64,000 bases of DNA from an uncultured Alphaproteobacteria bacterium (GCA_902620425.1 CACNHX010000002.1:75127-139126); one strand, 5' to 3'. Shown: positions 24,041 to 51,601, numbered from the stretch's first letter. The notes: generated by a model from the letters alone, not told the origin. A program made the numbers and translations.

Positions 24041-26200
24041 ATGGCTAAAAAGAAGAAAAAAATTATTAAAAAGAAAACAATAGTACCCAAAAAGAAAACT
24101 ACTGTTAAAAAAAAATTAACTAAGAAAAAATCAGTTTCTAAATCTTCCAAAGTTTCTAAATTAAAAACTATAAAAAAAACAAAAAAAACTATATCAAAAA
24201 AAGTACCCAAGAAGACATCTATTAAACCTTCTACAAAGGATAAACCAAAAAAAATTCCCAAAGTTATTTCAGGCTTCGAAGAAAAAATTAAAGAAATTTT
24301 TTCAAAGTTAATTAATAAGCATAAAATTGATGGAATATATACCAACAAGATAATTGAAAAAGCAATTCCAAAAAAATTTAGGATTGATGAAAATATAAAA
24401 AAATTTCAGGATCTTATTACTTCTAACAACATTAAAATATACTCAGAAGAAGAAGCAAAAGAATTATTATCTATAGCTAAAGAACAGAGTGAAAAATCTG
24501 AGGATGGTACTGATGAGCAAGAAAAAAAACAAACTGGAAAAACTGATGATCCTGTAAGATTATATTTAAGAGATATGGGTGCTGTTGAATTACTTAGTAG
24601 AGAGGGTGAAATAGCAATTGCTAAAAGAATTGAGGCAGGAAGAGAAAAAATGATTGGAGCTATTTGTGAGAGTCCAATGACAATTAGGTCAATAATTAAT
24701 TGGAAAGATGCAATTAAAGACGGAACTATGCTTTTAAGAGATATTGTAGATCTAGAAGCTACCTATGATATGTCAGATATATCAGATTCAAAACTTGAGG
24801 ATACACTTAAATTAATTGAAAGTGGCGGTGATAACAAAGAAGATGAAAATAAAAAGAAAGAAGATGCAAATAATTCTGAAGATAACAATGGAGAAGAGCA
24901 GACGCAAGAAGATGACGAGGATGATAGTTTAAACGTATCTCTTGCAGCAATGGAGGAAAAACTTAAACCAAAAGTATTAAATGATTTTAATGATATAACA
25001 AAACTATTCAAAAAACTCCAAAAACATAGTCAAGAACTAATAAATACAGATAAAAAAAATGAAAAAAATTATATCTCCTTAGAAAAAAAATATTTAAAAA
25101 TTCAAAAGGAAATGGTTGCGGCCATGAAGGCAGTTCATTTTAACTCCACTACTATTGAAGCATTAATGGAAGCATTATACGAATTAAATAAAAAACTTCT
25201 ATTTCGAGAGGGTAAAATGTTGCGTATGGCAACTAGTGCAGGTGTAAAAAGAGAAGATTTTGTAAATCAATATTTAAGTTTTAATTTTGAAAAAAATTGG
25301 ATCCAAACTTTATTAGCAACAAAAGACAAAAATTGGGAAAAGTTTATTAATAGAAATCATATTGAAATAAATAAAAATATTGAAGAAATTAAGGAAATTC
25401 AAACTGCATCAGAATTACCTTTAACTGAATTTAGAAGAATAGTGGGAACTGTGCAACAAGGTGAAAGGTCAGCTAATAGAGCTAAAAAAGAAATGATCGA
25501 ATCAAATCTTAGATTGGTAATTTCTATTGCAAAAAAATATACCAACAGAGGTCTTCAATTTTTAGATCTTATTCAAGAGGGTAATATTGGCTTAATGAAA
25601 GCTGTAGATAAATTTGAATATCGTAGAGGATATAAATTCTCTACTTATGCAACTTGGTGGATAAGACAAGCTATAACCAGATCTATTGCTGATCAAGCAA
25701 GAACAATAAGAATCCCTGTTCATATGATAGAAACAATTAATAAAATAGTTCGAACAACTAGACAGATTATGTCTGAGATTGGGAGGGAGCCTACTCCAAA
25801 CGAACTAGCTGATAGATTACATATGCCATTAGACAAAGTTAAGAAAGTTCTTAAAATAGCTAAAGAACCTATTAGTTTAGAAACGCCAGTAGGAGATGAA
25901 GAAGATAGCTCTCTTGGAGATTTTATCGAAGATAAAAATGCTCTTATACCTATAGATGCTGCGGTAAAAAGTTCTTTACGAGATACTACAACTAGAATAC
26001 TTTCTTCTTTAACACCTAGAGAAGAAAGAGTATTGAGAATGCGATTTGGTATTGGAATGAATAGTGATCATACCCTAGAAGAAGTTGGTCAACAATTTAG
26101 TGTTACAAGAGAGAGAATTAGGCAAATTGAAGCTAAGGCCCTAAGAAAATTAAAACATCCTACCAGAGCAAGAAAGTTAAAAACATTTCTTGACGAATAA
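24041..26200 (+). CDS. rpoD: RNA polymerase primary sigma factor with Lys-rich N-terminal extension
   Basis: [45 protein letters not shown]. Confidence 0.98.
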
Positions 26201-27027
26201 TGAAGCTAACGCTTCTTGGGACAGGATGTCCATCTATTGATCACAAAAGATGCGGTTCATCTAATCTTGTATCCTCAAAAAAAACCAAAATATTGGTAGA
26301 TTGTGGCTCAGGCGTAACACAAAGATTACACCAAAGTGGAAATTCTTCTGCTGAGATTGATGCGTTGTTACTTACACATCTTCATACAGATCATGTTATA
26401 GATTTATATCAACTAATTATTTCCTCTTGGCATTCAGATAGAGATTCAATTTGGAATATATATGGACCAAAAGGTACAAAAAAATTTATAGATAAAATTT
26501 TTTTAGCTTGGAGAGAAGAGCGTGAACTAAGAATTAATTATGAAAAGAGAAAATCTATAAAAGGTCTCAAATATAAAGTTTATGAGTTCAATAATGAAGG
26601 TAATATAAAAATTAATGATATAAAAATTAAATATTTTGAAGTAGATCATAAACCCGTTCCTTTTGCCTATGGCTTTTCTTTTTTTAATAATAAAAAAAAA
26701 TTAACAATTAGTGGTGACACAAAACCATGTGAGAGCTTAATGGTTAATGCTCAAAATGCAGATGTTCTTTTGCATGAAGTTTTTATTGAATATGAAATGA
26801 ATAAGACTTCAAAACTTAGAACTAAAAAAACTTTACATAATGTTAAGGAATATCATACTCCAAGTAATTTAGTTGGTAAGGTTGCAAAATTATCTAATTG
26901 TAAAAAACTTGTGTTAACGCATTTTGTTCCAACAAGATTCAATATTTCAAAACTTAAAAAAATAGTTAAAAAAGATTTTGGAAAGGATCCAATAATTGGA
27001 GAAGATTTATTAACTATTAAAATTTAA
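26200..27027 (+). CDS. MBL-fold metallo-hydrolase (RNase Z/AtsA-like)
   Basis: LLGTG.P, VDCG.G, THLHTDH (HxHxDH), SGDT, YHT, LTHF. Confidence 0.82.
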   Translation: MKLTLLGTGCPSIDHKRCGSSNLVSSKKTKILVDCGSGVTQRLHQSGNSSAEIDALLLTHLHTDHVIDLYQLIISSWHSDRDSIWNIYGPKGTKKFIDKIFLAWREERELRINYEKRKSIKGLKYKVYEFNNEGNIKINDIKIKYFEVDHKPVPFAYGFSFFNNKKKLTISGDTKPCESLMVNAQNADVLLHEVFIEYEMNKTSKLRTKKTLHNVKEYHTPSNLVGKVAKLSNCKKLVLTHFVPTRFNISKLKKIVKKDFGKDPIIGEDLLTIKI

Positions 27028-27851
27028 TTGATTTTATTCAATAATTTTTCAAATTCATCATCTTTAATTTCAACAATATTTGAGGATGTTGGAAATTTTT
27101 TAGTTTTAACGTCATCTATAAAGTTTTTCAAACCTTCTACAGTGTCATCTATAAGTTTTTCATAAGACTTATTCGTATCCTTAAATACTTTTGCATGTCG
27201 TGGTACTCGACCAGTATTAGTTCCAATTACATCTTGTATAAATAAAAACTCAACATCACAATTTGGACCACTTCCCATTGATAAAGTTAAAAGATTTACT
27301 TTTTTTGTAATTAATTCTGCTACCCGATCAGGAACACATTCTACCTCAAGACCAATAGCTCCCGCATTGTCATATGCAATAGCATCTTGATAAACTCTAA
27401 ATGCTGAGTCAGCATCTTTTCCTACGGCTTTAAAACCTCCGGTCCAAGTACTCTTATAGGGAATTAAACCAATATGACTTACAGATGGTAAACCTTCTTT
27501 ACGAAGAGCTTCAATATATTTTGGACTATTTCCACAATAAACTGCATCTGCTCCATTGTCTCTTGCAATTAATGCAGCATCAATTGCCTTATCAATAGAT
27601 GAAAGTTGACCAAGGCCAAATATCATAAAAGTATTAGGAGCAGCTTCTCTAATATCTTTTATATGAGCATCTCTGAACCATTTATTTGTTGGTACACCGG
27701 TTCTTAATGTTTCTTTTTTAAAAGATACAATTTGGATATCTATGCCAGCTTTTTCTGCAGCATAAGCTTCTAAAGAATTCGTTACATATAGCTCAGTTAA
27801 TTTTACTTTTCCTTTTTTCTCAAATAAATCTTTAACAGTTAATTTAGTCAT
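27024..27851 (-). CDS. Divergent ketopantoate hydroxymethyltransferase (PanB)-like protein
   Basis: HIGL.P, GGFKAVGK, EVECVP, GSG..D..F.F..DV.G resemble PanB, but the GDS, DLPF and KIEG motifs are absent. Confidence 0.7.
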   Translation of the reverse strand: MTKLTVKDLFEKKGKVKLTELYVTNSLEAYAAEKAGIDIQIVSFKKETLRTGVPTNKWFRDAHIKDIREAAPNTFMIFGLGQLSSIDKAIDAALIARDNGADAVYCGNSPKYIEALRKEGLPSVSHIGLIPYKSTWTGGFKAVGKDADSAFRVYQDAIAYDNAGAIGLEVECVPDRVAELITKKVNLLTLSMGSGPNCDVEFLFIQDVIGTNTGRVPRHAKVFKDTNKSYEKLIDDTVEGLKNFIDDVKTKKFPTSSNIVEIKDDEFEKLLNKIN

Positions 27852-29215
27852 TAATTATATTGAGGTAAATAATCACCATGTGCTTCAATCATTTTATCGG
27901 TCATGTTATAAATTTCATCAATTGTCAGATTAGCTCCTGTTAAAGGATCTAGCATTGCAGCATGGTATATATGCTCTCTTTTTTTTGTTAGAGCAGCTTC
28001 TGCAGTTAGTATTTGCACATTAATATTAGTGCGCATTAAAGCAGCTAATTGCTCTGGTAATTTACCAAATTTTTGAGGTTTATAACCTTTTGAATTAATT
28101 ATTACAGGAACCTCTACACAGCAATTTTCTGGTAAATTATCAATTAAATTGTCATTCATAACATTAGCATTGATAGTAACTTCTTTATTATTTGCAATTC
28201 CATCCATTATAAATGATGCATACTCATTACTTCTTTTAAGAGGCATATCATAAATTGGAGTCATATCTTTTTCCAAATCTTTCCAAAGTTTAATGTTGCT
28301 TTTGCATCTATCGATATACTCTTCTATTGGTATCTTGTATTTTTTTATGACGTCATCTCTATTTTGTTTTATGAACCATGGAACATATTCAGCAAAATGC
28401 TCACTAGATTCTGTTACAAAATAACCAAATCTTCTAAGAATTTCATATCGTACTTTTTCATGAAGTACTTTATTAGATTCGTGATCAGTTTTTTTACTTC
28501 TTGAGGATATTTCTTCATCATTTACAATTTTATCAGCTAGTTTTTTTAATCTTGGATATAAATCTTCGTTTTCATTTTCATTAATTTTCTTTTCAAATTT
28601 TTTATAGAAGGCCATATGGTTTATACCGCCACAAAGATAATCAATATTATTAATATCTTCATCTAAATCTTTTGCCAACATTTCTGCGGTTCCTTGAACG
28701 GAGTGACATAGACCCATAGCTTTTATTTCTGGGAAAGCAGTATTTATTGCAATCATGTTTGAACACATTGGATTTACGTATTGCAACCAAGTAGCATTAG
28801 AACAAATATCCATAATATCTTTTGCGATATCTAGTAAAACAGGAATAGTTCGTAGACCTCTCATTATTCCACCTATGCCGAGAGTATCTGCTATAGTTTG
28901 TCTTAACCCAAACTCATTTGGAATTTTAAAATCAATAACTGTGGATGGCTCATATCCCCCTACTTGAATTGTTGTTTGAACAAAGTCTGCACCAACTAAA
29001 GATTCTCGTCTGTCAGTATGGGAAGTAACTTTAGGTGAAACATTTAATTTTTTTGAAATTACATCTATTAAATCATGTGATGCTTTTAATCTTACAGGAT
29101 CAATATCTTGTAATGCAATCTCCATATTTTTAAATTGCTGAATAGCTAAAAGATCGGTTACTATTCTTCTTGTAAAAACAGCACTACCTGCGCCAATTAT
29201 AGTGAGTTTAATCAT
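27851..29215 (-). CDS. melA: GH4 NAD+-dependent alpha-galactosidase (MelA-like)
   Basis: IGAGS, QTIADTLGIGG, YVNPM, GLCHSV, GINHM, FGYFVTESSEHFAEYVPWF. Confidence 0.88.
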   Translation of the reverse strand: MIKLTIIGAGSAVFTRRIVTDLLAIQQFKNMEIALQDIDPVRLKASHDLIDVISKKLNVSPKVTSHTDRRESLVGADFVQTTIQVGGYEPSTVIDFKIPNEFGLRQTIADTLGIGGIMRGLRTIPVLLDIAKDIMDICSNATWLQYVNPMCSNMIAINTAFPEIKAMGLCHSVQGTAEMLAKDLDEDINNIDYLCGGINHMAFYKKFEKKINENENEDLYPRLKKLADKIVNDEEISSRSKKTDHESNKVLHEKVRYEILRRFGYFVTESSEHFAEYVPWFIKQNRDDVIKKYKIPIEEYIDRCKSNIKLWKDLEKDMTPIYDMPLKRSNEYASFIMDGIANNKEVTINANVMNDNLIDNLPENCCVEVPVIINSKGYKPQKFGKLPEQLAALMRTNINVQILTAEAALTKKREHIYHAAMLDPLTGANLTIDEIYNMTDKMIEAHGDYLPQYN

Positions 29216-29948
29216 TTTGATACTCCATGATTGAATTATGAGGTGCCACTTTTAAAGGAGTATACCTTGCGTGTCCAATTTCTTTATATGGATTATTTGT
29301 TTTAGTATTAAAGCATACTATTAAAGTTCTTCTTGAGTAGTTTGAATTATTTGCCTCTGATGAATGTAAAAGATTTGCATGAAAAAAAAGAGCATCTCCT
29401 GGATCGGCTTCAACATAAATACATTCATGTCTTTTTTCTAATTCACGTATTCTATCTAAATCTGCAGTTTGTTCAGGAGTATCAGATACACCATGACCTA
29501 TTCTTCCAACTTTTTGAGATCCTTTTAAAACTTTAAGACAGCCATTTTCTTTTGTAGCCTTATCTAACATTATAAAACAAGATCCCATATCTGGATATAG
29601 ACATGCATTATGATACCAATAACCATAATCCTGATGCCAATCAAAACCACCATCACCTGGCTTCTTCCAAATTACTTTTGAATGATAGTGGTAAACTTCA
29701 TCTTCCAGGAATTCTTCCATTGGTTTTACAATTCTTTCGTTAGTAGAAAATTTCCCAAATAAATCATTTGAGGGTTCATTCCATAATGTAATATTTAATT
29801 TACCCGTAGAACTAAACGTTTCTCTAGCTTGATTTTCTTTCTCAGAATTTCTTTCAATAAATTCAATTAATTTAAATATCTCATCTTCTGAAAAGAGTTT
29901 TCTTTTAAGAATGTATCCATTATTTCTGAAATCTGTGTAATCTGACAT
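29208..29948 (-). CDS. PhyH-family Fe(II)/2OG dioxygenase (L-proline 4-hydroxylase-like)
   Basis: WHQDYGYWY (H105, D107), ENGCL, LLHSS (H195), RR; overlaps melA start. Confidence 0.8.
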   Translation of the reverse strand: MSDYTDFRNNGYILKRKLFSEDEIFKLIEFIERNSEKENQARETFSSTGKLNITLWNEPSNDLFGKFSTNERIVKPMEEFLEDEVYHYHSKVIWKKPGDGGFDWHQDYGYWYHNACLYPDMGSCFIMLDKATKENGCLKVLKGSQKVGRIGHGVSDTPEQTADLDRIRELEKRHECIYVEADPGDALFFHANLLHSSEANNSNYSRRTLIVCFNTKTNNPYKEIGHARYTPLKVAPHNSIMEYQND

Positions 29949-30014
29949 ATTAATTTCATGTTAAAAATAAATAATAATATTGTCAAATAATTTAAGGTGT
30001 TTAAGAATAATCTT

Positions 30015-31478
30015 ATGAAAGTATCATTTCTTGGTGCAGGTAGTGTTGGCTTCACCCAAACCCTTGTTAGAGATATATTAAAAGTTAAAAAACTTCAAAA
30101 TATAGAAATTTCTTTACACGATATATCTAGAAATAATTTGTTAATGGTAGCAGAGTTAATTCAAAAAGATATTAAAGCTAATAATCTTCCAACAAAACTT
30201 AGTATTGATCCAATTAGAAAAGAATCAATAAGAAATGCAAAATATATCATTAGTTGTGTTAGAGTTGGAGGTTTAGAAGCATTTGAAACTGATATATCTA
30301 TTCCTTTAAAATATGGGATCGATCAATGTGTTGGAGATACAATTTGTGCTGGTGGCATAATGTATGGACAACGAAACATTCCAGTTATTTTAGATTTTTG
30401 TAAAGATATAAAAAAATATGCAAAAAAAAATGCTCTTTTCTTAAATTATGCAAATCCTATGGCTATGAATACCTGGGCGGCAAATGAAATTGGTAAAGTT
30501 AATACAATTGGTTTGTGTCACGGTGTTCAAGGTGGAGCAAAATTAATTGAAGATTCATTAAACATTCCATTTGGAAAAATGAAATATTCTTGCAGCGGTA
30601 TAAATCACATGACTTGGTATTTGGATTTAAATTATAAGGGTAAAAAAATTACAAAAGACCAGCTTTCTAAATCGTTAAAGAAACATAAAAAATTTTCAAG
30701 AGATGAAAAAGTTAGAATAGATGTTTTAGATAAATTTGGATATTTTTCTACAGAAAGTAACGGTCATTTAAGTGAATATTTACCATGGTATAGACGTACA
30801 CAAAAAGATGTGAAGAAATGGAGTAGTCTTTCAAACTGGATACATGGCGAAACAGGTGGTTACTTAAGAGTATGTAATGAAAAAAGAAATTGGTTTGTTG
30901 AGGATTATCCAAAATATTTAAAAAATTCTGGAATTAAGCTTAAAGATTACAAAAGATCAACTGAACACGGAAGTTATATAATTGAAGCAATTGAAACTGG
31001 AAAAAAATATAGAGGGCATTTTAATGTTATTAATAAAAAAACAATTTTTAATTTAGATGATGATTGCGTAATTGAGAGTACAGGATACGTAGATTCAAAA
31101 GGTATAAAAATGATTGATGGAATAACCTTACCGCTGCAATGTGCTTCTCTGTGCAGTACCTCAATAGATGTCCAAAGAATGGCTGTAAAGGCAGCAATAA
31201 AAGGAGATATTGAATTATTAAAACTTGCTGTACTGCAAGATCCACTAGTAAGCTCAGTATGTTCATCTGAGGAAGTTTGGCAAATGGTAGATGAAATGCT
31301 TGTTGCACAAGCACAATGGCTGCCACAATATCAATCAAAAATTAATAGTATTAAAAAGAATCTAAAAAAAATAAAAAATTATAAATATAATAAATCAATT
31401 AAAGGGCTGACCAAAAAAACAAAGCGTAATCAACAAAAAAGGTCAATTTTAGTTGAAAAGGAAGCATTTAATTTATAA
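30015..31478 (+). CDS. Second GH4 alpha-glucosidase/alpha-galactosidase
   Basis: Start at MKVSFLGAGS; DQCVGDT, NYANPM, GLCHGV, GINHMTW, STESNGHLSEYLPWY. Confidence 0.87.
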   Translation: MKVSFLGAGSVGFTQTLVRDILKVKKLQNIEISLHDISRNNLLMVAELIQKDIKANNLPTKLSIDPIRKESIRNAKYIISCVRVGGLEAFETDISIPLKYGIDQCVGDTICAGGIMYGQRNIPVILDFCKDIKKYAKKNALFLNYANPMAMNTWAANEIGKVNTIGLCHGVQGGAKLIEDSLNIPFGKMKYSCSGINHMTWYLDLNYKGKKITKDQLSKSLKKHKKFSRDEKVRIDVLDKFGYFSTESNGHLSEYLPWYRRTQKDVKKWSSLSNWIHGETGGYLRVCNEKRNWFVEDYPKYLKNSGIKLKDYKRSTEHGSYIIEAIETGKKYRGHFNVINKKTIFNLDDDCVIESTGYVDSKGIKMIDGITLPLQCASLCSTSIDVQRMAVKAAIKGDIELLKLAVLQDPLVSSVCSSEEVWQMVDEMLVAQAQWLPQYQSKINSIKKNLKKIKNYKYNKSIKGLTKKTKRNQQKRSILVEKEAFNL

Positions 31479-31559: not shown

Positions 31560-33611
31560 ATGAAAAAAAATAAATTTAGATCCACATTACTTGCTAGCGT
31601 AGCATCAGCTACTTTTGCATTAACCAGTACAAATGCGTCTGCTAGACCGGAAGGTGCAATAGCACTTCCATCAGCACCTGCAATTGAAAATATGCAAGAA
31701 GTTCAGTTCATTGGAAGAGATGAATTGATGAGCTATCAAGATATTGGAGACTTTGAATTTCTTTATGAACCAGAATACATTAGTGCTCTAGTTCAAGAAG
31801 GTAAACTACCACCGATTTGGGAACGATTACCAAAAAGACCTTTAGTTTTTAATGGAGATGCAATGCCTGATGGTATTGGTCGTTATGGAGGAACTTTTAG
31901 ACATACAATTGGTGGAAGACCTGAAGGATGGAACTGGACTGCTTCACAACATCAAGGATGGGGTGGAATTAATTACACAGTTCAAGAATGCCTAACAAGA
32001 AACGGTCCAATGGTAAGATTAAAAGCTGAAGACTCTTATCCTTTACCAAACTTAGCTACTGATTGGGAATGGGATGGAAATAAACTTACTATGAATCTTA
32101 TTGAAGGAGCAAAGTGGTCAGATGGAGATCCATTTGATGCAGAAGATGTTCGTTTTTGGTGGGAAGATAACGTTTTAGATGAGAACGTTCCAACAAGAAT
32201 GAATGCAACCACAATGGGAGAAGGGACTTCTTTGGAAGTACTTAGTCCAACCCAGATTAGATGGACATTCCCACAAGAAGAACCTAAATTAGTTCTTCAC
32301 TCCATGGCATATATAAATGGATGCCCTGGACCATCACATTTACTTAAAGAACATCACCCTAAATATGGTGGTACGTCTTATGATGATTATGTTCAAGCAT
32401 TTCCTGCTGGACGTTTACCATGGGTTAGCATGGGTGCATGGACTGCTGTTGAATATAAACAAGACGAGGTAGTAATACTTCGCAGAAATCCATACTATTG
32501 GAAAGTTGATAGTAAAGGACAACAACTTCCGTATATGAACGAGATGGTGTTCCAGTTAAAAACTTGGGGCCAAAGAACAGTTGATACCTTAGCTGGTAAC
32601 GCTGACTTCTCGAATATGGAGAACGTACCTTTATACTTAGAAGCTGTTAAAGAGTCTAAGAGTGATGATGCACAAGCTCAACTATCTTTTAGTGGAAGAA
32701 CCATGGGATATCAACTCGCCATGAACCAAGCAATTGGGTTAGGTGTATTGGATGATCAAATGGCAGCTATTCGAGATCTAAATAGAAATTTAGAATTCAG
32801 AAAAGCTGTTAAGCATGCAATTGATGGTAAAGCATTTGCAAAAGCAATGTCCAAAGGACCATTTGTGACAGTTTATGCAGGCGGTCTTGCTAGAGATAGT
32901 GCTTTCTTTGATGCAGATGCTACTTCATTTTTCCCTTATAATCCAGCAGGTGCAAATTCTATACTTGATGGATTAGGTCTTATAGATACTGATGGTAACG
33001 GAATTCGAAACCTTCCAAATGGAGGTGGAGATCTAGTTATTAATTTAGTTCAAAATAAAGGCAGTGATAATGAAATGTTGATTGGCGATGGAATGGCAAC
33101 TATGATGGCTGAAGTTGGTATTAAAATTAATATTAAACCAATGGAAGATACTGAGCCAACAAGACAAGCAGGTGAATGGGATTGGTTACTTGTAAGATCT
33201 CAACAAGAAATGGCCTTCCCTAATTCGGGTTATTGGTCAGATATGGGTCCTGTAACTACGTCTTCATTTGATCCTCACTTAGGAACTGATGAACACCCTC
33301 AACAACTTCAACCATTTGAGAAAGAAATCGTAAGTATTCTTGAAGAGTGGAGAGATGGTGTTGAAGGTGCAGAGGCTCAAGCATTAATGTCTCGCTATCA
33401 GAAACTATTTACAGAAAATGTTTATATGCCTGGTATAGTTCAATATCCAACAGCACTTTTGATAAACAAAAGAATTCAAAACTTAGCTGATGGAATGCCT
33501 GTTTTGGCTTATCAATGGGCTGAAGATACAGTTATCCGTGAACAATTCTGGGTTTATCAATATGATCAATTAGATGAACTTTTCCCTGGAAGAGTTCCTG
33601 GTATTGATTAA
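31560..33611 (+). CDS. Family 5 ABC substrate-binding protein, AgpA-like (probable alpha-galactoside binding)
   Basis: Signal peptide; GKLPP..ERLP, YGGT, WSDG.PF.A.DV, RNPYYWKVD.KG.QLPY; GGAGG SD; adjacent to GH4 genes. Confidence 0.8.
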   Translation: MKKNKFRSTLLASVASATFALTSTNASARPEGAIALPSAPAIENMQEVQFIGRDELMSYQDIGDFEFLYEPEYISALVQEGKLPPIWERLPKRPLVFNGDAMPDGIGRYGGTFRHTIGGRPEGWNWTASQHQGWGGINYTVQECLTRNGPMVRLKAEDSYPLPNLATDWEWDGNKLTMNLIEGAKWSDGDPFDAEDVRFWWEDNVLDENVPTRMNATTMGEGTSLEVLSPTQIRWTFPQEEPKLVLHSMAYINGCPGPSHLLKEHHPKYGGTSYDDYVQAFPAGRLPWVSMGAWTAVEYKQDEVVILRRNPYYWKVDSKGQQLPYMNEMVFQLKTWGQRTVDTLAGNADFSNMENVPLYLEAVKESKSDDAQAQLSFSGRTMGYQLAMNQAIGLGVLDDQMAAIRDLNRNLEFRKAVKHAIDGKAFAKAMSKGPFVTVYAGGLARDSAFFDADATSFFPYNPAGANSILDGLGLIDTDGNGIRNLPNGGGDLVINLVQNKGSDNEMLIGDGMATMMAEVGIKINIKPMEDTEPTRQAGEWDWLLVRSQQEMAFPNSGYWSDMGPVTTSSFDPHLGTDEHPQQLQPFEKEIVSILEEWRDGVEGAEAQALMSRYQKLFTENVYMPGIVQYPTALLINKRIQNLADGMPVLAYQWAEDTVIREQFWVYQYDQLDELFPGRVPGID

Positions 33612-33660: not shown

Positions 33661-34659
33661 ATGCTTTCATTTATATTCAGAAGAATTCTTTATTCAATTC
33701 CATTACTGTTCGTAATCAGTATTATAATTTTTTTTATTATTGAATTACCGCCTGGTGACTATGCAACATGGTATGTTAGTCAAACTAAAGCTTTAGCAAA
33801 TATCACACAAGAACAAGCTTTAGAACTAACAATAATGTTGAGAGAAAAATACGGCCTTAATGAACCATTAGTAATAAGATATTTCAATTGGATTAAAAAT
33901 ATTGTTTTAAATTTCGATTTTGGTTTTTCCATGCATTACAACAAACCTGTCAGTGAAATGTTAGGTGATAGATTACCTCGAACTCTAGTAATAGCATTAA
34001 TTTGTCATTTTTTTGCTACAACTATAGGTGTTTTTATAGGAATTTATGCTGCAAAAAATCAAAATAAGTTAGGTGATAATGTAGCTACTATCTTCGCTTT
34101 TTTAGGAATGACCATTCCACGTTTCTTTCTAGCATTACTAATAATGTATTGGTTAGCAATTGTTCTAAATTCAGACAACACTGGATCAATGTATTCTCCA
34201 TACTACGCTGTTCAACCAATGTCTTTTGCAAAACTATGGAATGGCATACTTCATATTTGGCCAATATTTGTCATCGCTATAATCGGAGGTCTTGCCTACA
34301 ATATGAGAGTTATGCGCGGAAATTTATTAGATGTAATGCGTATGCAATATATTGAAACAGCAAGAGCAAAAGGTTTGTCTGAAAATCAAACATTGTACCG
34401 TCATGCAGTACCAAATGCTTTGCATCCCCTTGTAATGTTTCAGGGTATTGCTTTACCATATATGCTAATGGGAGAACTAGAAGCTGCGATCGTTTTATCT
34501 ATTCCAACTGCAGGACCACTTTTAGTAGAATCTATTCAAAGACAAGACACTTATACTACTGCAGCAATTTTATTTTGCTTAACAGTAATATTAATTATAG
34601 GAAATATAATTGCTGATATTTTGCTAGCAATTTTAGATCCTCGAGTAAGACAGAATTAA
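33661..34659 (+). CDS. ABC permease (OppB/DppB type)
   Basis: LPPGD, YIETARAKGL EAA loop, AD.LLA.LDPRVR. Confidence 0.9.
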   Translation: MLSFIFRRILYSIPLLFVISIIIFFIIELPPGDYATWYVSQTKALANITQEQALELTIMLREKYGLNEPLVIRYFNWIKNIVLNFDFGFSMHYNKPVSEMLGDRLPRTLVIALICHFFATTIGVFIGIYAAKNQNKLGDNVATIFAFLGMTIPRFFLALLIMYWLAIVLNSDNTGSMYSPYYAVQPMSFAKLWNGILHIWPIFVIAIIGGLAYNMRVMRGNLLDVMRMQYIETARAKGLSENQTLYRHAVPNALHPLVMFQGIALPYMLMGELEAAIVLSIPTAGPLLVESIQRQDTYTTAAILFCLTVILIIGNIIADILLAILDPRVRQN

Positions 34660-34664
34660 ATATT

Positions 34665-35768
34665 ATGGAAACAACTTCAAACTTACAAAATTCATATTTT
34701 TCACTAGTAAGAAAAAGATTTTTGAAAAACAGAGTTGGAATATTAGGCTTAATTTTTGTAGGCTTTCTAATTTTCTCTGCTGTTTTTGCAGATTTTTTAT
34801 CTCCATATGATCCAGCAGCAAGAGATAGTGATAGAGTTTTTTATCCTCCTCAGGGAATACATTTCTTTGATGAGGATAATAATTTTTCGTTAAGACCTTT
34901 TGCTTATGGTTTTACTGAAGGATTTGATCCTGACACATATCTTCCAATAATGGAGATTGATTATACTCAAAAAAACTATCTTTATTTTTTTACTAGAGGA
35001 TGGGAATATAAGTTTCTAGGCTTAAATTTGGACTTACATTTATTTACTACTAAAGACGGGTCTAAAGTATTTTTTATTGGATCAGACGCCTATGGAAGGG
35101 ATATGTTATCAAGAATTTTTAAGGGAAGTAGGGTAACGCTATTATTCGCTCTGATAGTTGTAAGTATAACAACTTTCATTGGTATTTTAGTTGGAATTAG
35201 CTCAGGTTATTTTTCAGGAAAATTTGATATAGCTTCACAAAGAGTTACGGAACTTGCTTTAGCTTTTCCAGATCTACCTTTGTATTTATCCTTGGTAGCA
35301 ATTCTGCCAAGGCAAATGGATCCATTTCTGATTTTTATCTTTATGGCATTTATTTTATCCTCTTTACGGTGGGCTCAACTATCAAGAGAGGTTCGGGGAA
35401 AAACCCTTTCTTTAAGAAGATTAGACTATATTAAAGCAGCTGAAGCTTTAGGCTCCAATGATCTAAGAATTATATATAGACATCTACTTCCCAATGTAAC
35501 AAGTCACGTTATAGTAAGTGTTTCTTTATTGATACCTTCTGTAATTTTGACAGAAAGTTTTTTTAGCTTTTTAGGTTTAGGCATTCAATCTCCATTTGTT
35601 AGTTGGGGTCTTCAATTAAATTCTGCTCAAGATATGCGAACAATTGGAAGTTATCCATGGGTTTTAAGTCCTGTTTTTGCAATCTTAATTTCAGTTTTAG
35701 GATTTAATGCTCTTGGTGATGCTTTACGCGATGCAATTGATCCATATGCAACAACAACAAAAAAATAA
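34665..35768 (+). CDS. ABC permease (OppC/DppC type)
   Basis: GSDAYGRD.LSR, YIKAAEALG, SFLGLG, LGDALRDA.DP. Confidence 0.9.
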   Translation: METTSNLQNSYFSLVRKRFLKNRVGILGLIFVGFLIFSAVFADFLSPYDPAARDSDRVFYPPQGIHFFDEDNNFSLRPFAYGFTEGFDPDTYLPIMEIDYTQKNYLYFFTRGWEYKFLGLNLDLHLFTTKDGSKVFFIGSDAYGRDMLSRIFKGSRVTLLFALIVVSITTFIGILVGISSGYFSGKFDIASQRVTELALAFPDLPLYLSLVAILPRQMDPFLIFIFMAFILSSLRWAQLSREVRGKTLSLRRLDYIKAAEALGSNDLRIIYRHLLPNVTSHVIVSVSLLIPSVILTESFFSFLGLGIQSPFVSWGLQLNSAQDMRTIGSYPWVLSPVFAILISVLGFNALGDALRDAIDPYATTTKK

Positions 35769-37390
35769 TGACTAATCTTGTTGAAATTGAAAATCTTCAA
35801 GTAAAGTTTAATACAGATAGTGGTAAAGTAAATGCAGTGAATGGCATATCCTTTAATATTAAAAAGGGTGAAACATTAGCACTAGTAGGAGAGAGTGGGT
35901 CTGGTAAATCTGTTACTGCTAGAGGAATTATTCGATTACTTGCAGAAAATGCAATTATATCTGATCAAACATCAATAAAGTTTAATGGTACAAATATAAA
36001 TTCTTATTCTGAAAAAGAGTATCAAAATATTAGAGGAAAAAATATTTCAATGATTTTTCAAGAACCAATGAGTTCTTTAAATCCAATATATACAATTGAA
36101 AACCAAATTAGTGAGGTTTTAAAAATTCATGGAAAATTTTCAGATAAAGAACTCAAAGAAAAATGTCTTGAATTACTAAAACAAGTTCAAATTCCAGAAC
36201 CAGAGTCTAGATTATCACAGTATCCACATCAATTGTCAGGAGGACAAAGACAAAGAATTATGATTGCTATCGCCATAGCTAATAATCCAGATTTACTTAT
36301 TGCAGATGAGCCAACTACTGCTCTTGATGTTACAGTTCAAACAGAGATACTTAAATTACTTCAAAGTCTTCAACAAAAATATCAAATGTCCATTTTATTT
36401 ATTACTCATGATCTGACTATTGTCAGACAAATAAGTGATAGAGTTTGTGTAATGTATAATGGAAAAATTAAAGAAACAGGCATTACAAAAGAAATTTTTG
36501 AAAATCCAAAAGATGATTATACAAAACATTTATTGTCATCAGAGCCAGAAGAAAGAGATTTACATTATGATAAAAATGGAAGAAGCATCCTTTCAGGAGA
36601 AAATCTTAATGTAACATTTAATACTAAAGTAAAAGTATCAGGTAGAAATAAAGTTTTATCAATTAACGCTGTAAATAATATCAGTCTCGATCTTAAAGAA
36701 GGTGAGACTCTTGGAATTGTTGGCGAAAGTGGATCTGGTAAAACTACTTTAGGTCAAACTTTATTAAGGTTAGTTGATAGAGAATCTAACACAGATGTAG
36801 AAGGTGAAATTAAGTTTTTTGATGATCGAATTGACCGTTTATCTCGAAAGCAATTTAAGCCATTTAGAAATCAAATGCAGATAGTTTTTCAAGATCCATA
36901 TGCATCTTTAAATCCACGATTGTCTGTTAAACAAATTATAGAAGAGGGATTAATTGTAGCACTTAATATGAAAGATAAAAACGAACGGCTAAATAAAATT
37001 GAAAACATAATGAGTGAAGTTGGTTTAGAACCTAGCTCCATGCTTAGATTTCCTCATGAGTTTTCTGGAGGCCAAAGACAAAGAATAGCTATAGCAAGAT
37101 CATTTGTCTTAAATCCAAAATTTGTCTTATTGGATGAGCCAACATCAGCTCTTGATTTATCTATTCAAAAACAAATTCTAGAACTATTACTTCAACTCCA
37201 AAAAAATCACAAAACTACTTATATTTTTATCAGTCATGATTTAAGAGTTATTAGATCAATAAGCCACAATTTAATCGTTATGAAAGATGGTTCGATTCTA
37301 GAACAAGGTGTGGCAAAAAATATATTAACCAACCCTCAGAATGATTATACAAAGAATTTAATAAAATCTGCTTTTGATATTATTTATTAA
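35768..37390 (+). CDS. Double-domain ABC ATPase (OppD-OppF fused type)
   Basis: Two Walker A motifs (GESGSGKS, GESGSGKT), two SGGQRQR, two DEPT motifs. Confidence 0.93.
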   Translation: MTNLVEIENLQVKFNTDSGKVNAVNGISFNIKKGETLALVGESGSGKSVTARGIIRLLAENAIISDQTSIKFNGTNINSYSEKEYQNIRGKNISMIFQEPMSSLNPIYTIENQISEVLKIHGKFSDKELKEKCLELLKQVQIPEPESRLSQYPHQLSGGQRQRIMIAIAIANNPDLLIADEPTTALDVTVQTEILKLLQSLQQKYQMSILFITHDLTIVRQISDRVCVMYNGKIKETGITKEIFENPKDDYTKHLLSSEPEERDLHYDKNGRSILSGENLNVTFNTKVKVSGRNKVLSINAVNNISLDLKEGETLGIVGESGSGKTTLGQTLLRLVDRESNTDVEGEIKFFDDRIDRLSRKQFKPFRNQMQIVFQDPYASLNPRLSVKQIIEEGLIVALNMKDKNERLNKIENIMSEVGLEPSSMLRFPHEFSGGQRQRIAIARSFVLNPKFVLLDEPTSALDLSIQKQILELLLQLQKNHKTTYIFISHDLRVIRSISHNLIVMKDGSILEQGVAKNILTNPQNDYTKNLIKSAFDIIY

Positions 37391-38916
37391 TGAGGAAATT
37401 AAAAAACGTAACTATCCTAGGCGCAGGCACCGCCGGTTGGATTTCTGCATATATTCTAAGTGATTTTTTTTACACAAATAAACAAAATGTAAAAGTAACA
37501 ATTGTTGATCCTTCAAGCATTCCTATAATTGGTGTTGGAGAAGGAACAACCGGAATATTTTATGATTTTTTAAAAAGATATAATTTAGATGAACTAGACT
37601 TTTTAAGAGAAACAAAAGCTACTCTAAAGTTTGGGATTGTTCATAAAGACTGGAAAGAATTAAATCATCAATATTATGGACCAATTGATGACCCACATTT
37701 GTTAGCATCTAAAAAAGACCCTGAAGATTTTGAATATTTAAATGTTTATGCAGTTGCTGCAGGTCGATCTGTTGCTGATGTGCATTTACACACAAAACTA
37801 ATGGAAACAAATAAAGTTCCTTTCAATCTTGAAAATAGCAGACCCGATTTAAAAAGCCCTTTTTTCTATGCTTATCATTTTGATAATCATCTTGTTGGAA
37901 ATTATTTAAGAAAAAGATCAAAAAATATAGAGATTCTTGATGAAGTCTATACGCATGCTTCATTAAATGAAAATGGAGAAATTGAAAAACTTCATTTTGA
38001 AAGTGGTAAAGAAATTGAAACTGATTTAGTTCTTGATTGTACAGGCTTCAGAAAACTCCTCATAAATAAATTATATAATGTTGGATGGAAATCTTATCAA
38101 AAAAATTTACCAGTAAATAGAGCTATGCCTTTCTTTTTAAAATTAGATGAAAAAAATATTAGTAATTATACTTTAGCTTGGGCACAAAAAAATGGTTGGA
38201 TGTGGCAAATACCAACTCAAGAAAGAATTGGTGCTGGTTATGTATATTGTGATAATTTTACAAGTCCAGAAGAAGCTAAGATTGAAATAGAGAAAGTCTT
38301 AGGTCATGAAATAGAACCAAGAAACGATATTAAATTTACTTCGGGTAGAATAGAAAAATCATGGGTAAAAAATTGTATTGCCATAGGATTAGCTTCTGGC
38401 TTTCTTGAGCCATTAGAAGCCACTTCAATTCATAGCACTCTAATACAAATGATTTTGTTTGCAACTGATTACCTCAAAGAAGAAATGGATTTTAATAATG
38501 AAAAAATAATGGATGAGTTTAATGATAGAGTTGGACGTCAGTTTGATGATTTTATGATCTTTCTTAATACTCATTATGTGTCCAATAGAGATGATAGTGA
38601 TTTTTGGAAATATGTTAAAAATGAATGTATTCACGAAGACACTTTGAACCTCATTAATAAATGGAAAAATCAATTACCTAGGATGAGTGATTTTGAATTA
38701 TATCTTTCAGGCCTTCCTCATGTTCAATCACAACTTTATTATCCTGTTTTAGATGGCCTAGGTTTACTCCAAAAAGATGTTGCAAGGGAAGAAATGAATA
38801 ATTTTAATTTAAAGCCCTTTGCAAGAGATGAATATAAAAGATTTAATGATCAGTATGATGATCAAATGAAAAGATTCATAAAGCACAATGATTATTTAGA
38901 ATATGCATCACTTTGA
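37390..38916 (+). CDS. Flavin-dependent (tryptophan) halogenase family protein
   Basis: GAGTAG, IGVGEGT, ATLK(80)FGI catalytic Lys, WMWQIP, FLEPLEATSI. Confidence 0.85.
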   Translation: MRKLKNVTILGAGTAGWISAYILSDFFYTNKQNVKVTIVDPSSIPIIGVGEGTTGIFYDFLKRYNLDELDFLRETKATLKFGIVHKDWKELNHQYYGPIDDPHLLASKKDPEDFEYLNVYAVAAGRSVADVHLHTKLMETNKVPFNLENSRPDLKSPFFYAYHFDNHLVGNYLRKRSKNIEILDEVYTHASLNENGEIEKLHFESGKEIETDLVLDCTGFRKLLINKLYNVGWKSYQKNLPVNRAMPFFLKLDEKNISNYTLAWAQKNGWMWQIPTQERIGAGYVYCDNFTSPEEAKIEIEKVLGHEIEPRNDIKFTSGRIEKSWVKNCIAIGLASGFLEPLEATSIHSTLIQMILFATDYLKEEMDFNNEKIMDEFNDRVGRQFDDFMIFLNTHYVSNRDDSDFWKYVKNECIHEDTLNLINKWKNQLPRMSDFELYLSGLPHVQSQLYYPVLDGLGLLQKDVAREEMNNFNLKPFARDEYKRFNDQYDDQMKRFIKHNDYLEYASL

Positions 38917-41311: not shown

Positions 41312-42139
41312 ATGAAAAAAGTTTCACAGCTTGATGAATACTTATTTGATTTAAATGGATATTTAATAATTGAAAATGCTTTAAGTAGAAAAGAATTAAA
41401 AGATCTTAATAATATTCTAGATAAATTAAAAAGTTTAAAACATAAAGAATGGGCAGGCTATGTTCATGGACACAATTATGGTGGCAAGGAAGGTTTAAAT
41501 CTTCAACAAATTTATGAAGCTGGAAAACCCTTTGAAAAATTAATTGATCATCCTTCATGGATAAATCATATGCTTCATTTTGTTGGAGGAAAAGATACAT
41601 TTGATCAACATCATGGACCATTATTTATCGATGAAAATTTTGCGAATATTAGAGGGCAGGGAGAAGCTATTGGAATTCATTCTGGTGCTCACGAAGGAAC
41701 TCAAAGAGGTCATTATAGATTTGAAAATGGAAAATTTCACTGCGGACAAATTAATATTTTGCTAGCTCTAAATGATATAGGCCCAGGTGATGGTGGTACA
41801 GTCATTATTCCTTCATCACATAAATCAAATTTACGTCATCCAGAGTTTGATAAACATGTTATGAAAAAGGGCAAAGTTACATCAGCTGATAATATGACAG
41901 CTTCAAAAGAAATTTATTTAAAAGCTGGAGACGGACTATTATTTGTAGATTCACTTTGTCATGGTTCTGCAAAAAGAACAAATAAAGGAGAAAGAAGAAT
42001 TGTTGTTTACAGATATGGGCCTTCTTGGGGTTTTTTTAGACACCCTTATCGACCTTCAAAAAAACTACTTTCAAATCTCACTGAATTTCAAAAAAAAATA
42101 GTAATGCCTCACGAGCAAGTGCTTTCACCAAATAACTAA
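41312..42139 (+). CDS. PhyH-family Fe(II)/2OG enzyme with H-S-G in place of H-x-D
   Basis: FDLNGYL, GIHSG (H123-S-G125), DGGT..IP.SHKSN, AGD.LLF..SL.HG (H217), RR. Confidence 0.78.
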   Translation: MKKVSQLDEYLFDLNGYLIIENALSRKELKDLNNILDKLKSLKHKEWAGYVHGHNYGGKEGLNLQQIYEAGKPFEKLIDHPSWINHMLHFVGGKDTFDQHHGPLFIDENFANIRGQGEAIGIHSGAHEGTQRGHYRFENGKFHCGQINILLALNDIGPGDGGTVIIPSSHKSNLRHPEFDKHVMKKGKVTSADNMTASKEIYLKAGDGLLFVDSLCHGSAKRTNKGERRIVVYRYGPSWGFFRHPYRPSKKLLSNLTEFQKKIVMPHEQVLSPNN

Positions 42140-42232: not shown

Positions 42233-43486
42233 ATGAAATTAATTAAATCCTTAATTTTGTCTCTTGCAGTTTTAGTTGGGTTTTCATCAACTTCAAATGC
42301 TAGAGATATTACACTTTCAATGTGGACGCATAACCAGCTCTATGTTGATTATTTCAATACTTATCTTGAAGAAGTGCAAGCTGCATTTCCAGATGATAAT
42401 ATTACTTTTGATTTTCAAGTTACGCCTGATATGGCTACAAACAGTTTAACGGCGATTGCTTCAGGTTCTGAACATACTGATCTTTTAGGAATTGAGATAA
42501 GCGGTTTTGGTCTATTTATGGTTGATGATATTATTTCAGACAACTTTGTACCACTAACAGATATGTACGGTGACATGTCTCAATGGAATCCAGGAAAAGT
42601 AGCTGCTTGGACTCACACTAATGGTGAGATATATGGAATTGAAAGCGAAGGCTGTTATATGGTCTATTACTACAACCCAAGCATTCTTGAAAGTTATGGT
42701 AAATCAGTACCAAAAACTTGGGACGAGTTTATGGAAACTGGAAAAATTTTAGCAAAAGATGGAATTTCAATGATGCTATCTGAGTTAAGATTTATTGGAA
42801 TGTACCAACAAGCTGGTGGTAAATTCTTCAATGAAGATGGTGAATTTGAAATGGATGAAGATCTTTTCATGGAGGTTTTAAAATTCCAAGAAGAAGCTTT
42901 TGCATCCGGAGTAATTAACTATACTACTGACTATTGGGGTCAAACACCTGGTGTTCTTTACAATTCAAAGCAAACTGTAGGAACTATGGCGCCTGACTGG
43001 TATAACAATTGTTGTTTACAACCTACAGTTAAGGATACACAATCTGGTGAGTGGAGAGTTGCTCCTCTTCCTACTTGGGGAGATGAAGGATATAAAACTT
43101 TTCACTGGGGTGGAACTGGTTTTGCCATTCATAAATCTTCAGAAGCTGTAGACGTTGCTAAAAAGTTACTTGAACTTGCTTACTTTTCATATGAAGGTCA
43201 AATTGCAAAATATGATTTCTTCGGAGGAATGCCTACTTTATTGGCTGCTCTTGAAGATCCAAGAATTGCAGATAAAAAATTTGATTTTTATGGAGGTCAA
43301 AAATTTGCAGAGCCATTTATTTCTGTAGCAGGGTCAAGTGCTGATGACTATCAGCATGTTGGTCGAGCTATTATTGATAGTGTTTCTCGTGATTTGACAA
43401 CATTATTAGCAAATGGTGAAATAACTGCTGAGGAAGCTCATGAAAGGTTCATTTCACAAGTTCAAGATGAACTTGACTTTTTATAG
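42233..43486 (+). CDS. Carbohydrate ABC substrate-binding protein (CUT1)
   Basis: Signal peptide, P.TWDE, WRVAPLP, GGTGFAI; GGAGG SD. Confidence 0.88.
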   Translation: MKLIKSLILSLAVLVGFSSTSNARDITLSMWTHNQLYVDYFNTYLEEVQAAFPDDNITFDFQVTPDMATNSLTAIASGSEHTDLLGIEISGFGLFMVDDIISDNFVPLTDMYGDMSQWNPGKVAAWTHTNGEIYGIESEGCYMVYYYNPSILESYGKSVPKTWDEFMETGKILAKDGISMMLSELRFIGMYQQAGGKFFNEDGEFEMDEDLFMEVLKFQEEAFASGVINYTTDYWGQTPGVLYNSKQTVGTMAPDWYNNCCLQPTVKDTQSGEWRVAPLPTWGDEGYKTFHWGGTGFAIHKSSEAVDVAKKLLELAYFSYEGQIAKYDFFGGMPTLLAALEDPRIADKKFDFYGGQKFAEPFISVAGSSADDYQHVGRAIIDSVSRDLTTLLANGEITAEEAHERFISQVQDELDFL

Positions 43487-43499
43487 ACGATAATTTTTT

Positions 43500-43525
43500 A
43501 AAGCAGGGTTTTTACCCTGCTTTTT
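43500..43525 (+). terminator. Hairpin plus T-tract after SBP gene
   Basis: AAAGCAGGGT-TTTT-ACCCTGCTTT-TT. Confidence 0.8.
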
Positions 43526-43548
43526 AAAAATCAAATCAAAATAATAAT

Positions 43549-45375: not shown

Positions 45376-45376
45376 T

Positions 45377-48402: not shown

Positions 48403-48448
48403 TTTGTAAGATTAGCTTTTCATAATTAAAAATTATTAGTCTTACAAG

Positions 48449-48490
48449 TAAAACGTTTTATTGACTTGATTAGTAAAACGTTTTACTAAT
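48449..48490. promoter_or_regulatory. Tandem LacI-type operators flanking a -35 box
   Basis: TAAAACGTTTTA (48449-48460), TTGACT (48461-48466) and a perfect 22-bp palindrome ATTAGTAAAACGTTTTACTAAT (48469-48490) in the divergent promoter. Confidence 0.85.
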
Positions 48491-48516
48491 TATCAAACTA
48501 TTAAGGGAGGAAAATA

Positions 48517-49761: not shown

Positions 49762-49773
49762 TATAACTTTTAT

Positions 49774-49797
49774 TAAGGCAGGATTTATCCTGCCTTA
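49774..49797 (+). terminator. Hairpin after SBP gene (no clear T-tract; possibly mRNA-stabilising)
   Basis: TAAGGCAGGA-TTTA-TCCTGCCTTA. Confidence 0.65.
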
Positions 49798-49821
49798 GTT
49801 AACTTGCTTTTTAAATTTCCA

Positions 49822-51599: not shown

Positions 51600-51601
51600 T
51601 T

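Follow-up and report, generated by a model that had tools for sequence, protein, structure and literature searches.

The 64 kb stretch of DNA examined here, referred to as the window, comes from an uncultured alphaproteobacterium and has a G+C content of about 29%. Since the closest matches of its proteins are to named Pelagibacteraceae or to marine single-cell genomes, the window belongs to a SAR11-type (Pelagibacteraceae) genome. At the centre of this analysis are three overlapping genes of its minus strand: PhyH1, coding for an Fe(II)/2-oxoglutarate (2OG) dioxygenase, GH4a, coding for a family-4 glycosidase (GH4), and a gene whose product, related to the ketopantoate hydroxymethyltransferase PanB, is called PanB-like hereafter. 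The first two genes overlap by 8 nt (29208-29215) at a junction reading ATGATTAA, the ATG of GH4a lying inside the final PhyH1 codons (context ...CAAAATGATTAAACTC), and the last two have base 27851 in common within a TAATG junction (context ...TATAATTAATGACT). An earlier reading of the window, made from its sequence alone (the sequence-only reading), had given the same coordinates and overlaps, and the open reading frame (ORF) calls and junction sequences agree with it exactly. The co-oriented overlapping triplet also recurs with the same overlaps in SAR11 relatives (loci L012-L014, from independent single-cell genomes), and contigs of four marine metatranscriptomes cover all three genes, bridging both junctions. 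As those contigs are unstranded and may contain DNA, they support a single transcript without proving it.

The triplet is one arm of a divergent locus, the other arm of which holds a second GH4 gene (GH4b), the genes for a substrate-binding protein (SBP), two permeases and an ATPase of an ATP-binding cassette (ABC) importer, and a flavoprotein gene (Table 1). PhyH1 and GH4b are divergent and only 48-66 bp apart. This interval contains an AT-rich palindrome and, just upstream of PhyH1, a candidate promoter (TTGACA-17-TAACAT) that is a consensus match only; a promoter and terminator scan returned sites no commoner than in shuffled sequence.

Table 1. Features of the window around the PhyH1, GH4a and PanB-like genes (positions counted from the first letter of the window)
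Feature	Position	Strand	Description
RpoD homologue	24041-26200	+	starts with a lysine-rich low-complexity extension of ~70 residues
RNase Z-like gene	26200-27027	+	metallo-beta-lactamase (MBL) fold; converges on PanB-like, 4-nt end overlap (27024-27027)
PanB-like	27024-27851	-	275 aa; TIM-barrel protein; gene 3 of the operon
GH4a	27851-29215	-	454 aa; family-4 NAD+/Mn2+ glycosidase, alpha-galactosidase subfamily; gene 2
PhyH1	29208-29948	-	246 aa; PhyH-family Fe(II)/2OG dioxygenase; gene 1
PhyH1/GH4b control region	29949-30014		short intergenic stretch between divergent genes
Candidate promoter	29986-29958	-	TTGACA-17-TAACAT
AT-rich palindrome	29964-29993		in the control region
GH4b	29997-31478	+	second GH4, alpha-galactosidase subfamily; 493 aa from GTG, likely start ATG 30015
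Family-5 SBP	31560-33611	+	683 aa; MelB/AgpA type, periplasmic alpha-galactoside-binding protein homologue
Opp-type permeases	33661-34659, 34665-35768	+	same ABC importer; order and Pfam families as in L001-L006 and Ensifer
Fused double ATPase	35768-37390	+	same ABC importer
Trp-halogenase-family flavoprotein	37390-38916	+	508 aa; PF04820, 334.8 bits; start overlaps the ATPase stop
PhyH2	41312-42139	+	275 aa; second PhyH-family oxygenase; PF05721, 56.8 bits
Sugar-related stretch	42233-54572		two CUT1-type sugar ABC systems and further genes (see text)
Fused permease	43549-45375		608 aa; in one of the CUT1-type systems

The divergent locus resembles a known rhizobial system. GH4a matches PF02056 (197 bits) and PF11975 (195 bits), and both GH4a (585 bits) and GH4b (540 bits) exceed the cut-off of 486 bits of the NCBIfam alpha-galactosidase model PRK15076 and carry the motifs GAGS (residues 8-11), GLCH (168-171) and GINH (197-200), with 33% identity between the two. 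The SBP aligns over residues 37-681 of 683 with the MelB protein of A. fabrum (PDB 6EPY, "periplasmic alpha-galactoside-binding protein"; E 3.4e-179, 600 bits). On the Ensifer plasmid pT173d, an AraC gene stands next to the series GH4-SBP-permease-permease-ATPase-GH4. Identity is 55% between GH4b and the upstream GH4 of that plasmid and 47% between GH4a and the downstream one, crosswise pairs reaching 29-33%, and the two are the orthologues of the GH4s that flank the rhizobial agp/mel operon. The MelB match, the Ensifer gene order and this pairwise orthology point together to the rhizobial alpha-galactoside system, and the locus is very probably an uptake system of the agp/mel type. The galactosidase activity proposed for GH4a in the sequence-only reading fits this context, given the predicted subfamily of the enzyme and its position inside an alpha-galactoside uptake locus. 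With its importer and GH4 pair, the window adds a new member to a known system, in a host where it was not expected; literature searches on SAR11 with GH4 or alpha-galactosidase, and on Pelagibacter with floridoside or melibiose, returned nothing relevant.

The third gene of the triplet is the least expected part of the locus. Its product matches PF02548 (Pantoate_transf) with 130.6 bits, and its AlphaFold2 model (mean predicted local distance difference test score, pLDDT, 84) is a PanB barrel whose top 28 Foldseek matches are all PanB (template modelling score, TM, 0.66-0.78), with low confidence exactly where the Asp45 loop would be expected. It nonetheless scores below both PanB equivalog cut-offs of NCBIfam (105.9 against 207.55 bits for TIGR00222; 113.6 against 272 for PRK00311). 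In E. coli PanB we take Asp45, Asp84 and Glu114 to be the Mg2+ ligands and Lys112 to bind the keto-acid, following the work on structure 1M3U. The PanB-like protein is missing the GDSL loop with Asp45 and Ser46, has Gly79, Tyr105 and Gly107 in place of Asp84, Lys112 and Glu114, and retains His136 (as H126) and Glu181 (as E171), which bears out the description of the gene as a "degenerate PanB" in the sequence-only reading. These replacements are not peculiar to the window: across 72 PanB-like sequences, Asp84 is replaced by Gly in 62 and Lys112 by Tyr in 65, Glu114 is replaced by Ser, Asn, Gly or Ala and the position of Asp45 is non-acidic, with His136 kept in 66 and Glu181 in 68. The family has motifs of its own (DAVYC, K-x-TWTGGF-x-AVGK and PRHAK) and an extra C-terminal helix. 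Since the copies in different SAR11 clusters are 85-100% identical and the replacements are family-wide, the gene is not decaying. Judging from these residues, the protein should be unable to bind Mg2+ and alpha-ketoisovalerate as PanB does, and it is almost certainly not a ketopantoate hydroxymethyltransferase.

Members of the PanB-like family, in thousands of clusters, are found in SAR11, Rhizobiales, Chloroflexi and other groups and are annotated everywhere as PanB. A profile search returned at least 6035 clusters at E <= 1e-10, a number that may include some canonical PanBs, and every source name among the best 120 matches is 3-methyl-2-oxobutanoate hydroxymethyltransferase.

Among 80 loci fetched from metagenomes scanned with the family profile, 63 contain an oxygenase component, the 17 others being mostly short contigs. 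An FA_desaturase-family (MocD-like) gene is found in 44 loci, a Rieske ferredoxin gene (MocE) in 41, a ferredoxin reductase gene in 20, FA_hydroxylase in 17, PhyH in 11 and a cytochrome P450 gene in one; PurU, a formyl-tetrahydrofolate (formyl-THF) deformylase, is found in five and GH4 in four. Neither panC nor panD was ever seen beside the PanB-like gene in the 80 loci. The Rieske protein scores 173.9 bits with the NCBIfam "MocE family" model (cut-off 136), and PurU, with 371 bits, also exceeds its NCBIfam cut-off. The typical operon from soil or freshwater reads desaturase-like, Rieske, reductase, PanB-like, and is surrounded by genes for LacI regulators, sugar-binding proteins, Gfo/Idh/MocA oxidoreductases and xylose-isomerase-like proteins. 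On S. meliloti pSymB and on a plasmid of R. etli, where the first gene is annotated "hydrocarbon oxygenase MocD-like", a LacI gene likewise adjoins the series MocD-like, MocE, reductase, PanB-like, and two loci (L128, L114) have the order ThuA-PhyH-PanB-like. The conserved partner of the PanB-like family is thus in all probability an oxygenase within sugar or cyclitol uptake operons, and not GH4. According to a passage of PMC13434037 that cites Bahar 1998, mocDEF codes for the O-demethylase of 3-O-methyl-scyllo-inosamine, a rhizopine.

Two variants of these loci may be mentioned here. In Anaerolineales (L175, 4198-6500; L174), a 483-aa FA_desaturase-Rieske fusion is directly followed by the PanB-like gene, behind two LacI regulators. 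The sole P450 partner stands in a soil metagenome locus (L130, 3774-8786) with the order Peripla_BP_4, permease, ATPase, P450, PanB-like; the top matches of this P450 were CYP125, CYP130 and CYP199A4, with no specific closeness to solved carbohydrate demethylases.

The oxygenase of the triplet itself appears intact by its sequence. PhyH1 matches the PhyH family (PF05721) with 113.6 bits (Pfam cut-off 22) and carries the motif W104-H105-Q106-D107-Y108-G109-Y110-W111-Y112. An alignment of 18 family members shows no variation at H105, D107 and R206 and a conservation of at least 90% at H195, in line with the H105-x-D107...H195 triad of the sequence-only reading. This triad aligns with that of 7DT0, and R206 is presumably the Arg that binds the C5 carboxylate of 2OG. 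The AlphaFold2 model (pLDDT 89) matches enzymes of the PhyH fold at TM ~0.8, the nearest solved structures, by sequence and by Foldseek, being the trans-3/4-proline hydroxylase H11, GriE and EctD (20-25% identity; 24% in the Foldseek matches). That H11 has WHQDYTFWHH at the place of WHQDYGYWY agrees with the resemblance to L-proline 4-hydroxylase-like enzymes that the sequence-only reading gave for this motif. Significant fold matches to the sugar-acting enzymes SnoK/SnoN and EvdO2/AviO1 rank below those three. PhyH1 falls under every NCBIfam equivalog cut-off, the best score being that with ectoine_ThpD (60 bits against 336.5), and reaches 53 bits against a cut-off of 500 with the methylphosphonate hydroxylase model. 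Membership in the ectoine or proline hydroxylase families was rejected, as the scores are far under the equivalog cut-offs.

Relatives of PhyH1 are at least 68% identical within the SAR11 cluster and at most 50% identical (44-50%) outside it, where they occur in Planctomycetota, Acidobacteriota, Verrucomicrobiota, Bacteroidota and Alphaproteobacteria. These more distant relatives occupy a carbohydrate or cyclitol gene context, their recurrent neighbours being Gfo/Idh/MocA oxidoreductases in 19 loci, xylose-isomerase-like TIM barrels in 16 (for the most part adjacent), and pyrroloquinoline quinone (PQQ) dehydrogenases, short-chain dehydrogenases/reductases (SDRs) and LacI regulators.

All SAR11 versions of the locus occupy one chromosomal site, adjoining the RNase Z-like MBL gene, rpoD, dnaG and carAB, and vary in composition. 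Six loci (L001-L006) have the order PhyH2-PhyH1-[FA_desaturase family]-GH4a-PanB-like, and one (L167) has PhyH2-PhyH1-GH4a-PanB-like. GH4a-PanB-like without an adjacent PhyH1 is found in L139 and L146, and PhyH1 overlapping the PanB-like gene without GH4a in L144. L015 and L131 have PhyH1-SBP_bac_1-permease-permease-PanB-like-PhyH3 and are devoid of any GH4. A MocD-like gene is present in sister loci L001-L010, and MocD-like, MocE and reductase genes together in L093 and L125; over 327 aa, the MocD-like protein of L002 and the R. etli "MocD-like" protein share 34% identity (E 2e-71). The locus is therefore a mosaic, the constant elements of which are the PanB-like gene, a sugar importer and one or more oxygenases. 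As to the conservation of the triplet, the same arrangement recurs in SAR11 (L012-L014), yet genes are inserted or dropped in other SAR11 loci and the arrangement is absent from the PhyH1-family loci fetched from outside SAR11. The sequence-only reading had taken the triplet for a functional unit. What it saw is half of an agp/mel-type locus that also has an ABC importer, a further GH4 and a flavoprotein, and parts of it are inserted or lost among SAR11, so that the notion of a self-contained unit was rejected in favour of a larger divergent locus of varying composition.

Several observations on the SAR11 loci can be added. In L012 and L014 (4813-6804), the family-5 SBP is only 43% identical to that of the window, the permeases 46-49% and the ATPase 56%, the flanking enzymes staying 64-89% identical; the transporter seems, from these values, to have been swapped or to differ in specificity. 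No SAR11 version of the locus lacks the Trp-halogenase-like flavoprotein (motifs GAGTAG and WMWQIP), which in L012 and L014 directly follows GH4b. A second SAR11 cluster (L015, 15658-20691, minus strand; L092-L111; L125) consists of MocD-like, a PanB-like paralogue (40% identity), FA_hydroxylase, SMP-30 lactonase and IlvD/Edd dehydratase genes. Some contigs have, upstream of these, another MocD-like gene together with reductase, MocE ferredoxin and PanB-like genes, which brings the consecutive PanB-like paralogues, each beside an oxygenase, to two or three.

PhyH2 shares 75% identity with the 278-aa PhyH at L002:9152-9988, and heads the PhyH1 operon in relatives; it has been relocated in the window. 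Its nearest solved chains, 4XC9 and 4XCB ("putative oxidase/hydroxylase"), align over the C-terminal half only. A stretch IHSG seems, by eye, to lie at the position of the WHQD of PhyH1, and could be a His-x-Gly site as in Fe/2OG halogenases.

Taken together, these data suggest that the triplet is one arm of a locus serving the catabolism of a decorated alpha-galactoside, in which oxidative demethylation is followed by handling of the one-carbon (C1) unit, a mechanism to which, as a whole, we assign a probability of roughly 40%. The MelB-type ABC importer would bring in the alpha-galactoside, and the oxygenases of the locus (PhyH1 and PhyH2, with MocD-like in sister strains) would hydroxylate the sugar or its aglycone at a methyl (ether) group. 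A hydroxylated methyl ether would be an unstable hemiacetal, from which formaldehyde would be released. The PanB-like protein would then pass the C1 unit to tetrahydrofolate (THF), or remove a hydroxymethyl group by retro-aldol cleavage, and the C1 unit would feed the THF-linked C1 oxidation of SAR11, the GH4s freeing galactose before or after the demethylation step. PanB itself, whose conserved C-terminal half with His136 and Glu181 is retained in the PanB-like protein, uses 5,10-methylene-THF, and SAR11 has THF-linked C1 oxidation. Demethylation with C1 handling is partly supported, because the PanB-like gene travels with oxygenases in most of its loci, because MocDEF is a known O-demethylase and because PurU is found in some of the loci. 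Of the demethylation and C1 hypothesis in the sequence-only reading, it is the role of the PanB-like protein that the oxygenase context and PurU favour, and the triplet as the unit carrying it out that has to be given up; a methyl-galactoside as the substrate, and PhyH1 as the demethylase in preference to PhyH2 or a MocD-like enzyme elsewhere, gain no such support. Within the proposed mechanism, it is doubtful that PhyH1 is the demethylase in this particular strain. We would likewise put forward only tentatively the idea that the PanB-like family is a new THF-dependent formaldehyde or hydroxymethyl acceptor coupling oxidative carbohydrate demethylation to folate C1 metabolism, an acceptor that is proposed to serve four unrelated oxygenase classes (MocD di-iron enzymes, FA_hydroxylase, PhyH and P450).

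A number of points weigh against this interpretation. All of its chemistry rests on gene neighbourhood. MocD, MocE and MocF are absent from the 64 kb window, and in sister strains the partner of the PanB-like protein could be the MocD-like protein and not PhyH1. Since none of 76 non-SAR11 PhyH1-family loci has a PanB-like gene within 10 kb (nor do any have a GH4), the pairing of PhyH1 with PanB-like is specific to SAR11. The characterised enzymes nearest to PhyH1 hydroxylate free amino acids or ectoine, not sugars. Only five of the 80 loci have PurU nearby, the PanB-like protein is a putative THF binder, and the P450 partner is a single locus without specific kinship to any solved carbohydrate demethylase. 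To our knowledge, no methylated alpha-galactoside is an abundant marine metabolite.

Other explanations must be set against the demethylation of a decorated alpha-galactoside. The locus could be a plain one for melibiose, raffinose, galactinol, floridoside or galactosylglycerol, for which the importer and the GH4s suffice, with PhyH1 and the PanB-like gene being unrelated and packed next to them by genome streamlining. The rhizobial agp/mel system does work without a PhyH or PanB-like gene, and the parts are separable, given that GH4a-PanB-like exists without an adjacent PhyH1 (L139, L146) and PhyH1-PanB-like without GH4a (L144). Chance packing is nevertheless hard to reconcile with overlaps and a gene order that are kept across SAR11 lineages with proteins only 76-88% identical, with transcripts that bridge the triplet junctions and with the association of PanB-like with oxygenases inside sugar-uptake operons across phyla, and we regard it as unlikely. 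That the PanB-like gene is simply the real panB of the cell, or a decaying copy, might be supposed from its PF02548 match and from the name 3-methyl-2-oxobutanoate hydroxymethyltransferase that the family bears in public records. Replacements at Lys112 and at all three Mg2+ ligand positions are family-wide, conservation among SAR11 clusters is high, the scores are below both PanB cut-offs, and the neighbours are oxygenases and never panC or panD; this possibility, to which we give hardly any probability, was rejected on those grounds.

The two remaining alternatives concern the substrate. The methyl group hydroxylated by the oxygenase might be carbon-bound and not part of an ether, on a sugar or cyclitol that is branched or C-methylated, with a dehydrogenase making the adjacent ketone and the PanB-like protein transferring the hydroxymethyl group to THF by retro-aldol cleavage. 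This would be the chemistry nearest to that of real PanB; it would agree with the conservation of the presumed catalytic Glu181 and His136 and with the Gfo/Idh/MocA dehydrogenases that recur in PanB-like and PhyH1-family loci as well as in the window, and a carboxylate-free substrate would explain the lost Mg2+/carboxylate site. It seems improbable all the same, as MocDEF, the one characterised partner system, is an O-demethylase, as the three-gene operon has no dehydrogenase and as such substrates are hypothetical. Alternatively, PhyH1 might be a hydroxylase of the proline, leucine or ectoine type acting on a free zwitterion or on the aglycone left by GH4, with the PanB-like protein serving other oxygenases. 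Its best sequence and fold matches (H11, GriE and EctD) and its best NCBIfam match (ectoine hydroxylase) are of this type. Against this stand the low identity to these enzymes, the ectoine_ThpD score far under its cut-off, the lack of amino-acid or ectoine catabolic genes nearby, the carbohydrate enzymes neighbouring the family in other phyla, and the significant fold matches to sugar-acting SnoK/SnoN and EvdO2/AviO1, which leave this explanation with little probability in our estimation.

The region around the locus can be described briefly. Downstream of the flavoprotein gene are genes for a major facilitator superfamily (MFS) transporter, a class II aldolase and PhyH2, and the whole downstream stretch is a carbohydrate island. 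Besides its two CUT1-type systems, the stretch beyond PhyH2 contains two Gfo/Idh/MocA oxidoreductases, an aldo-keto reductase, a LacI regulator and a xylose-isomerase-like TIM barrel; the Gfo/Idh/MocA, LacI and xylose-isomerase-like families are also neighbours of PhyH1 relatives in other phyla. On the other side of the triplet, the RNase Z-like protein is under all NCBIfam RNase Z cut-offs, and a spurious 106-aa ORF lies on the strand opposite to the RpoD homologue.

SAR11 is commonly portrayed as having almost no glycoside hydrolases and as specialising in small C1 compounds and osmolytes. By joining a rhizobial-type alpha-galactoside importer and two GH4s with oxygenases and a relative of a folate enzyme, a conserved and expressed SAR11 locus would link sugar use to THF-dependent C1 oxidation. 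If demethylation does take place there, SAR11, the most abundant marine heterotroph, would strip and oxidise the methyl groups of imported glycosides with a 2OG dioxygenase that is cheap in cofactors. Thousands of genomes, those of model rhizobia among them, carry the PanB-like protein under the mistaken annotation of a pantothenate enzyme, and in the rhizobia it comes after mocDEF-like genes; its function, once assigned, would complete a carbohydrate/cyclitol demethylation pathway that has been without a C1-handling step since 1998. Demethylation chemistry of the MocDEF kind is already known. The apparent novelty lies in the general partnership between the PanB-like family and carbohydrate-modifying oxygenases, and in the joining of PanB-like to an alpha-galactoside locus in SAR11, with a 2OG dioxygenase replacing the three-component MocDEF. 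Searches of the literature on moc genes or rhizopine, and on pinitol demethylase or hydroxymethyltransferase, found no paper naming a PanB-like partner. The P450 demethylation of 6-O-methyl-galactose in marine Bacteroidota provides an established precedent (PMC6292453).

The PanB-like protein and PanB (1M3U, 1OY0, 1O66) have in common the TIM-barrel fold (TM ~0.78) and a C-terminal half with H-x-G-L-x-P, GG, E-C/V-V-P and G-x-G motifs, but the Mg2+ and keto-acid residues are replaced in the PanB-like protein, which partners oxygenases in place of panC and panD. PhyH1 resembles H11, GriE and EctD in its fold, its HxD...H triad and its WHQDY-type motif, and is set apart from them by its 20-25% identity, its scores far under the equivalog cut-offs and a context of carbohydrate, not amino-acid or osmolyte, genes. 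The P450 6-O-methyl-D-galactose demethylase follows the same proposed logic, in which a methyl ether of the sugar is oxidised away as formaldehyde, enabling glycoside catabolism. It belongs to another enzyme class and another organism, and the window contains no polysaccharide utilization locus (PUL); we know of no PanB-like partner in that system. With the agp/mel system of Rhizobiales (AgpA/MelB and two GH4s; structures 6EPY-6EQ8), the window has in common the order GH4-SBP-permease-permease-fused ATPase. In the window, however, the second GH4 has moved to the divergent operon, between the PhyH and PanB-like genes, its place after the ATPase is taken by the Trp-halogenase-like flavoprotein, and neither an AraC nor a LacI regulator adjoins the system. 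As for MocDEF, the only oxygenases of the window are 2OG-dependent PhyH enzymes and the flavoprotein, whereas sister SAR11 loci have a full-length MocD homologue between PhyH1 and GH4a, and in Rhizobiales, Chloroflexi and many metagenome loci the MocD, MocE and reductase genes are followed by a member of the PanB-like family.

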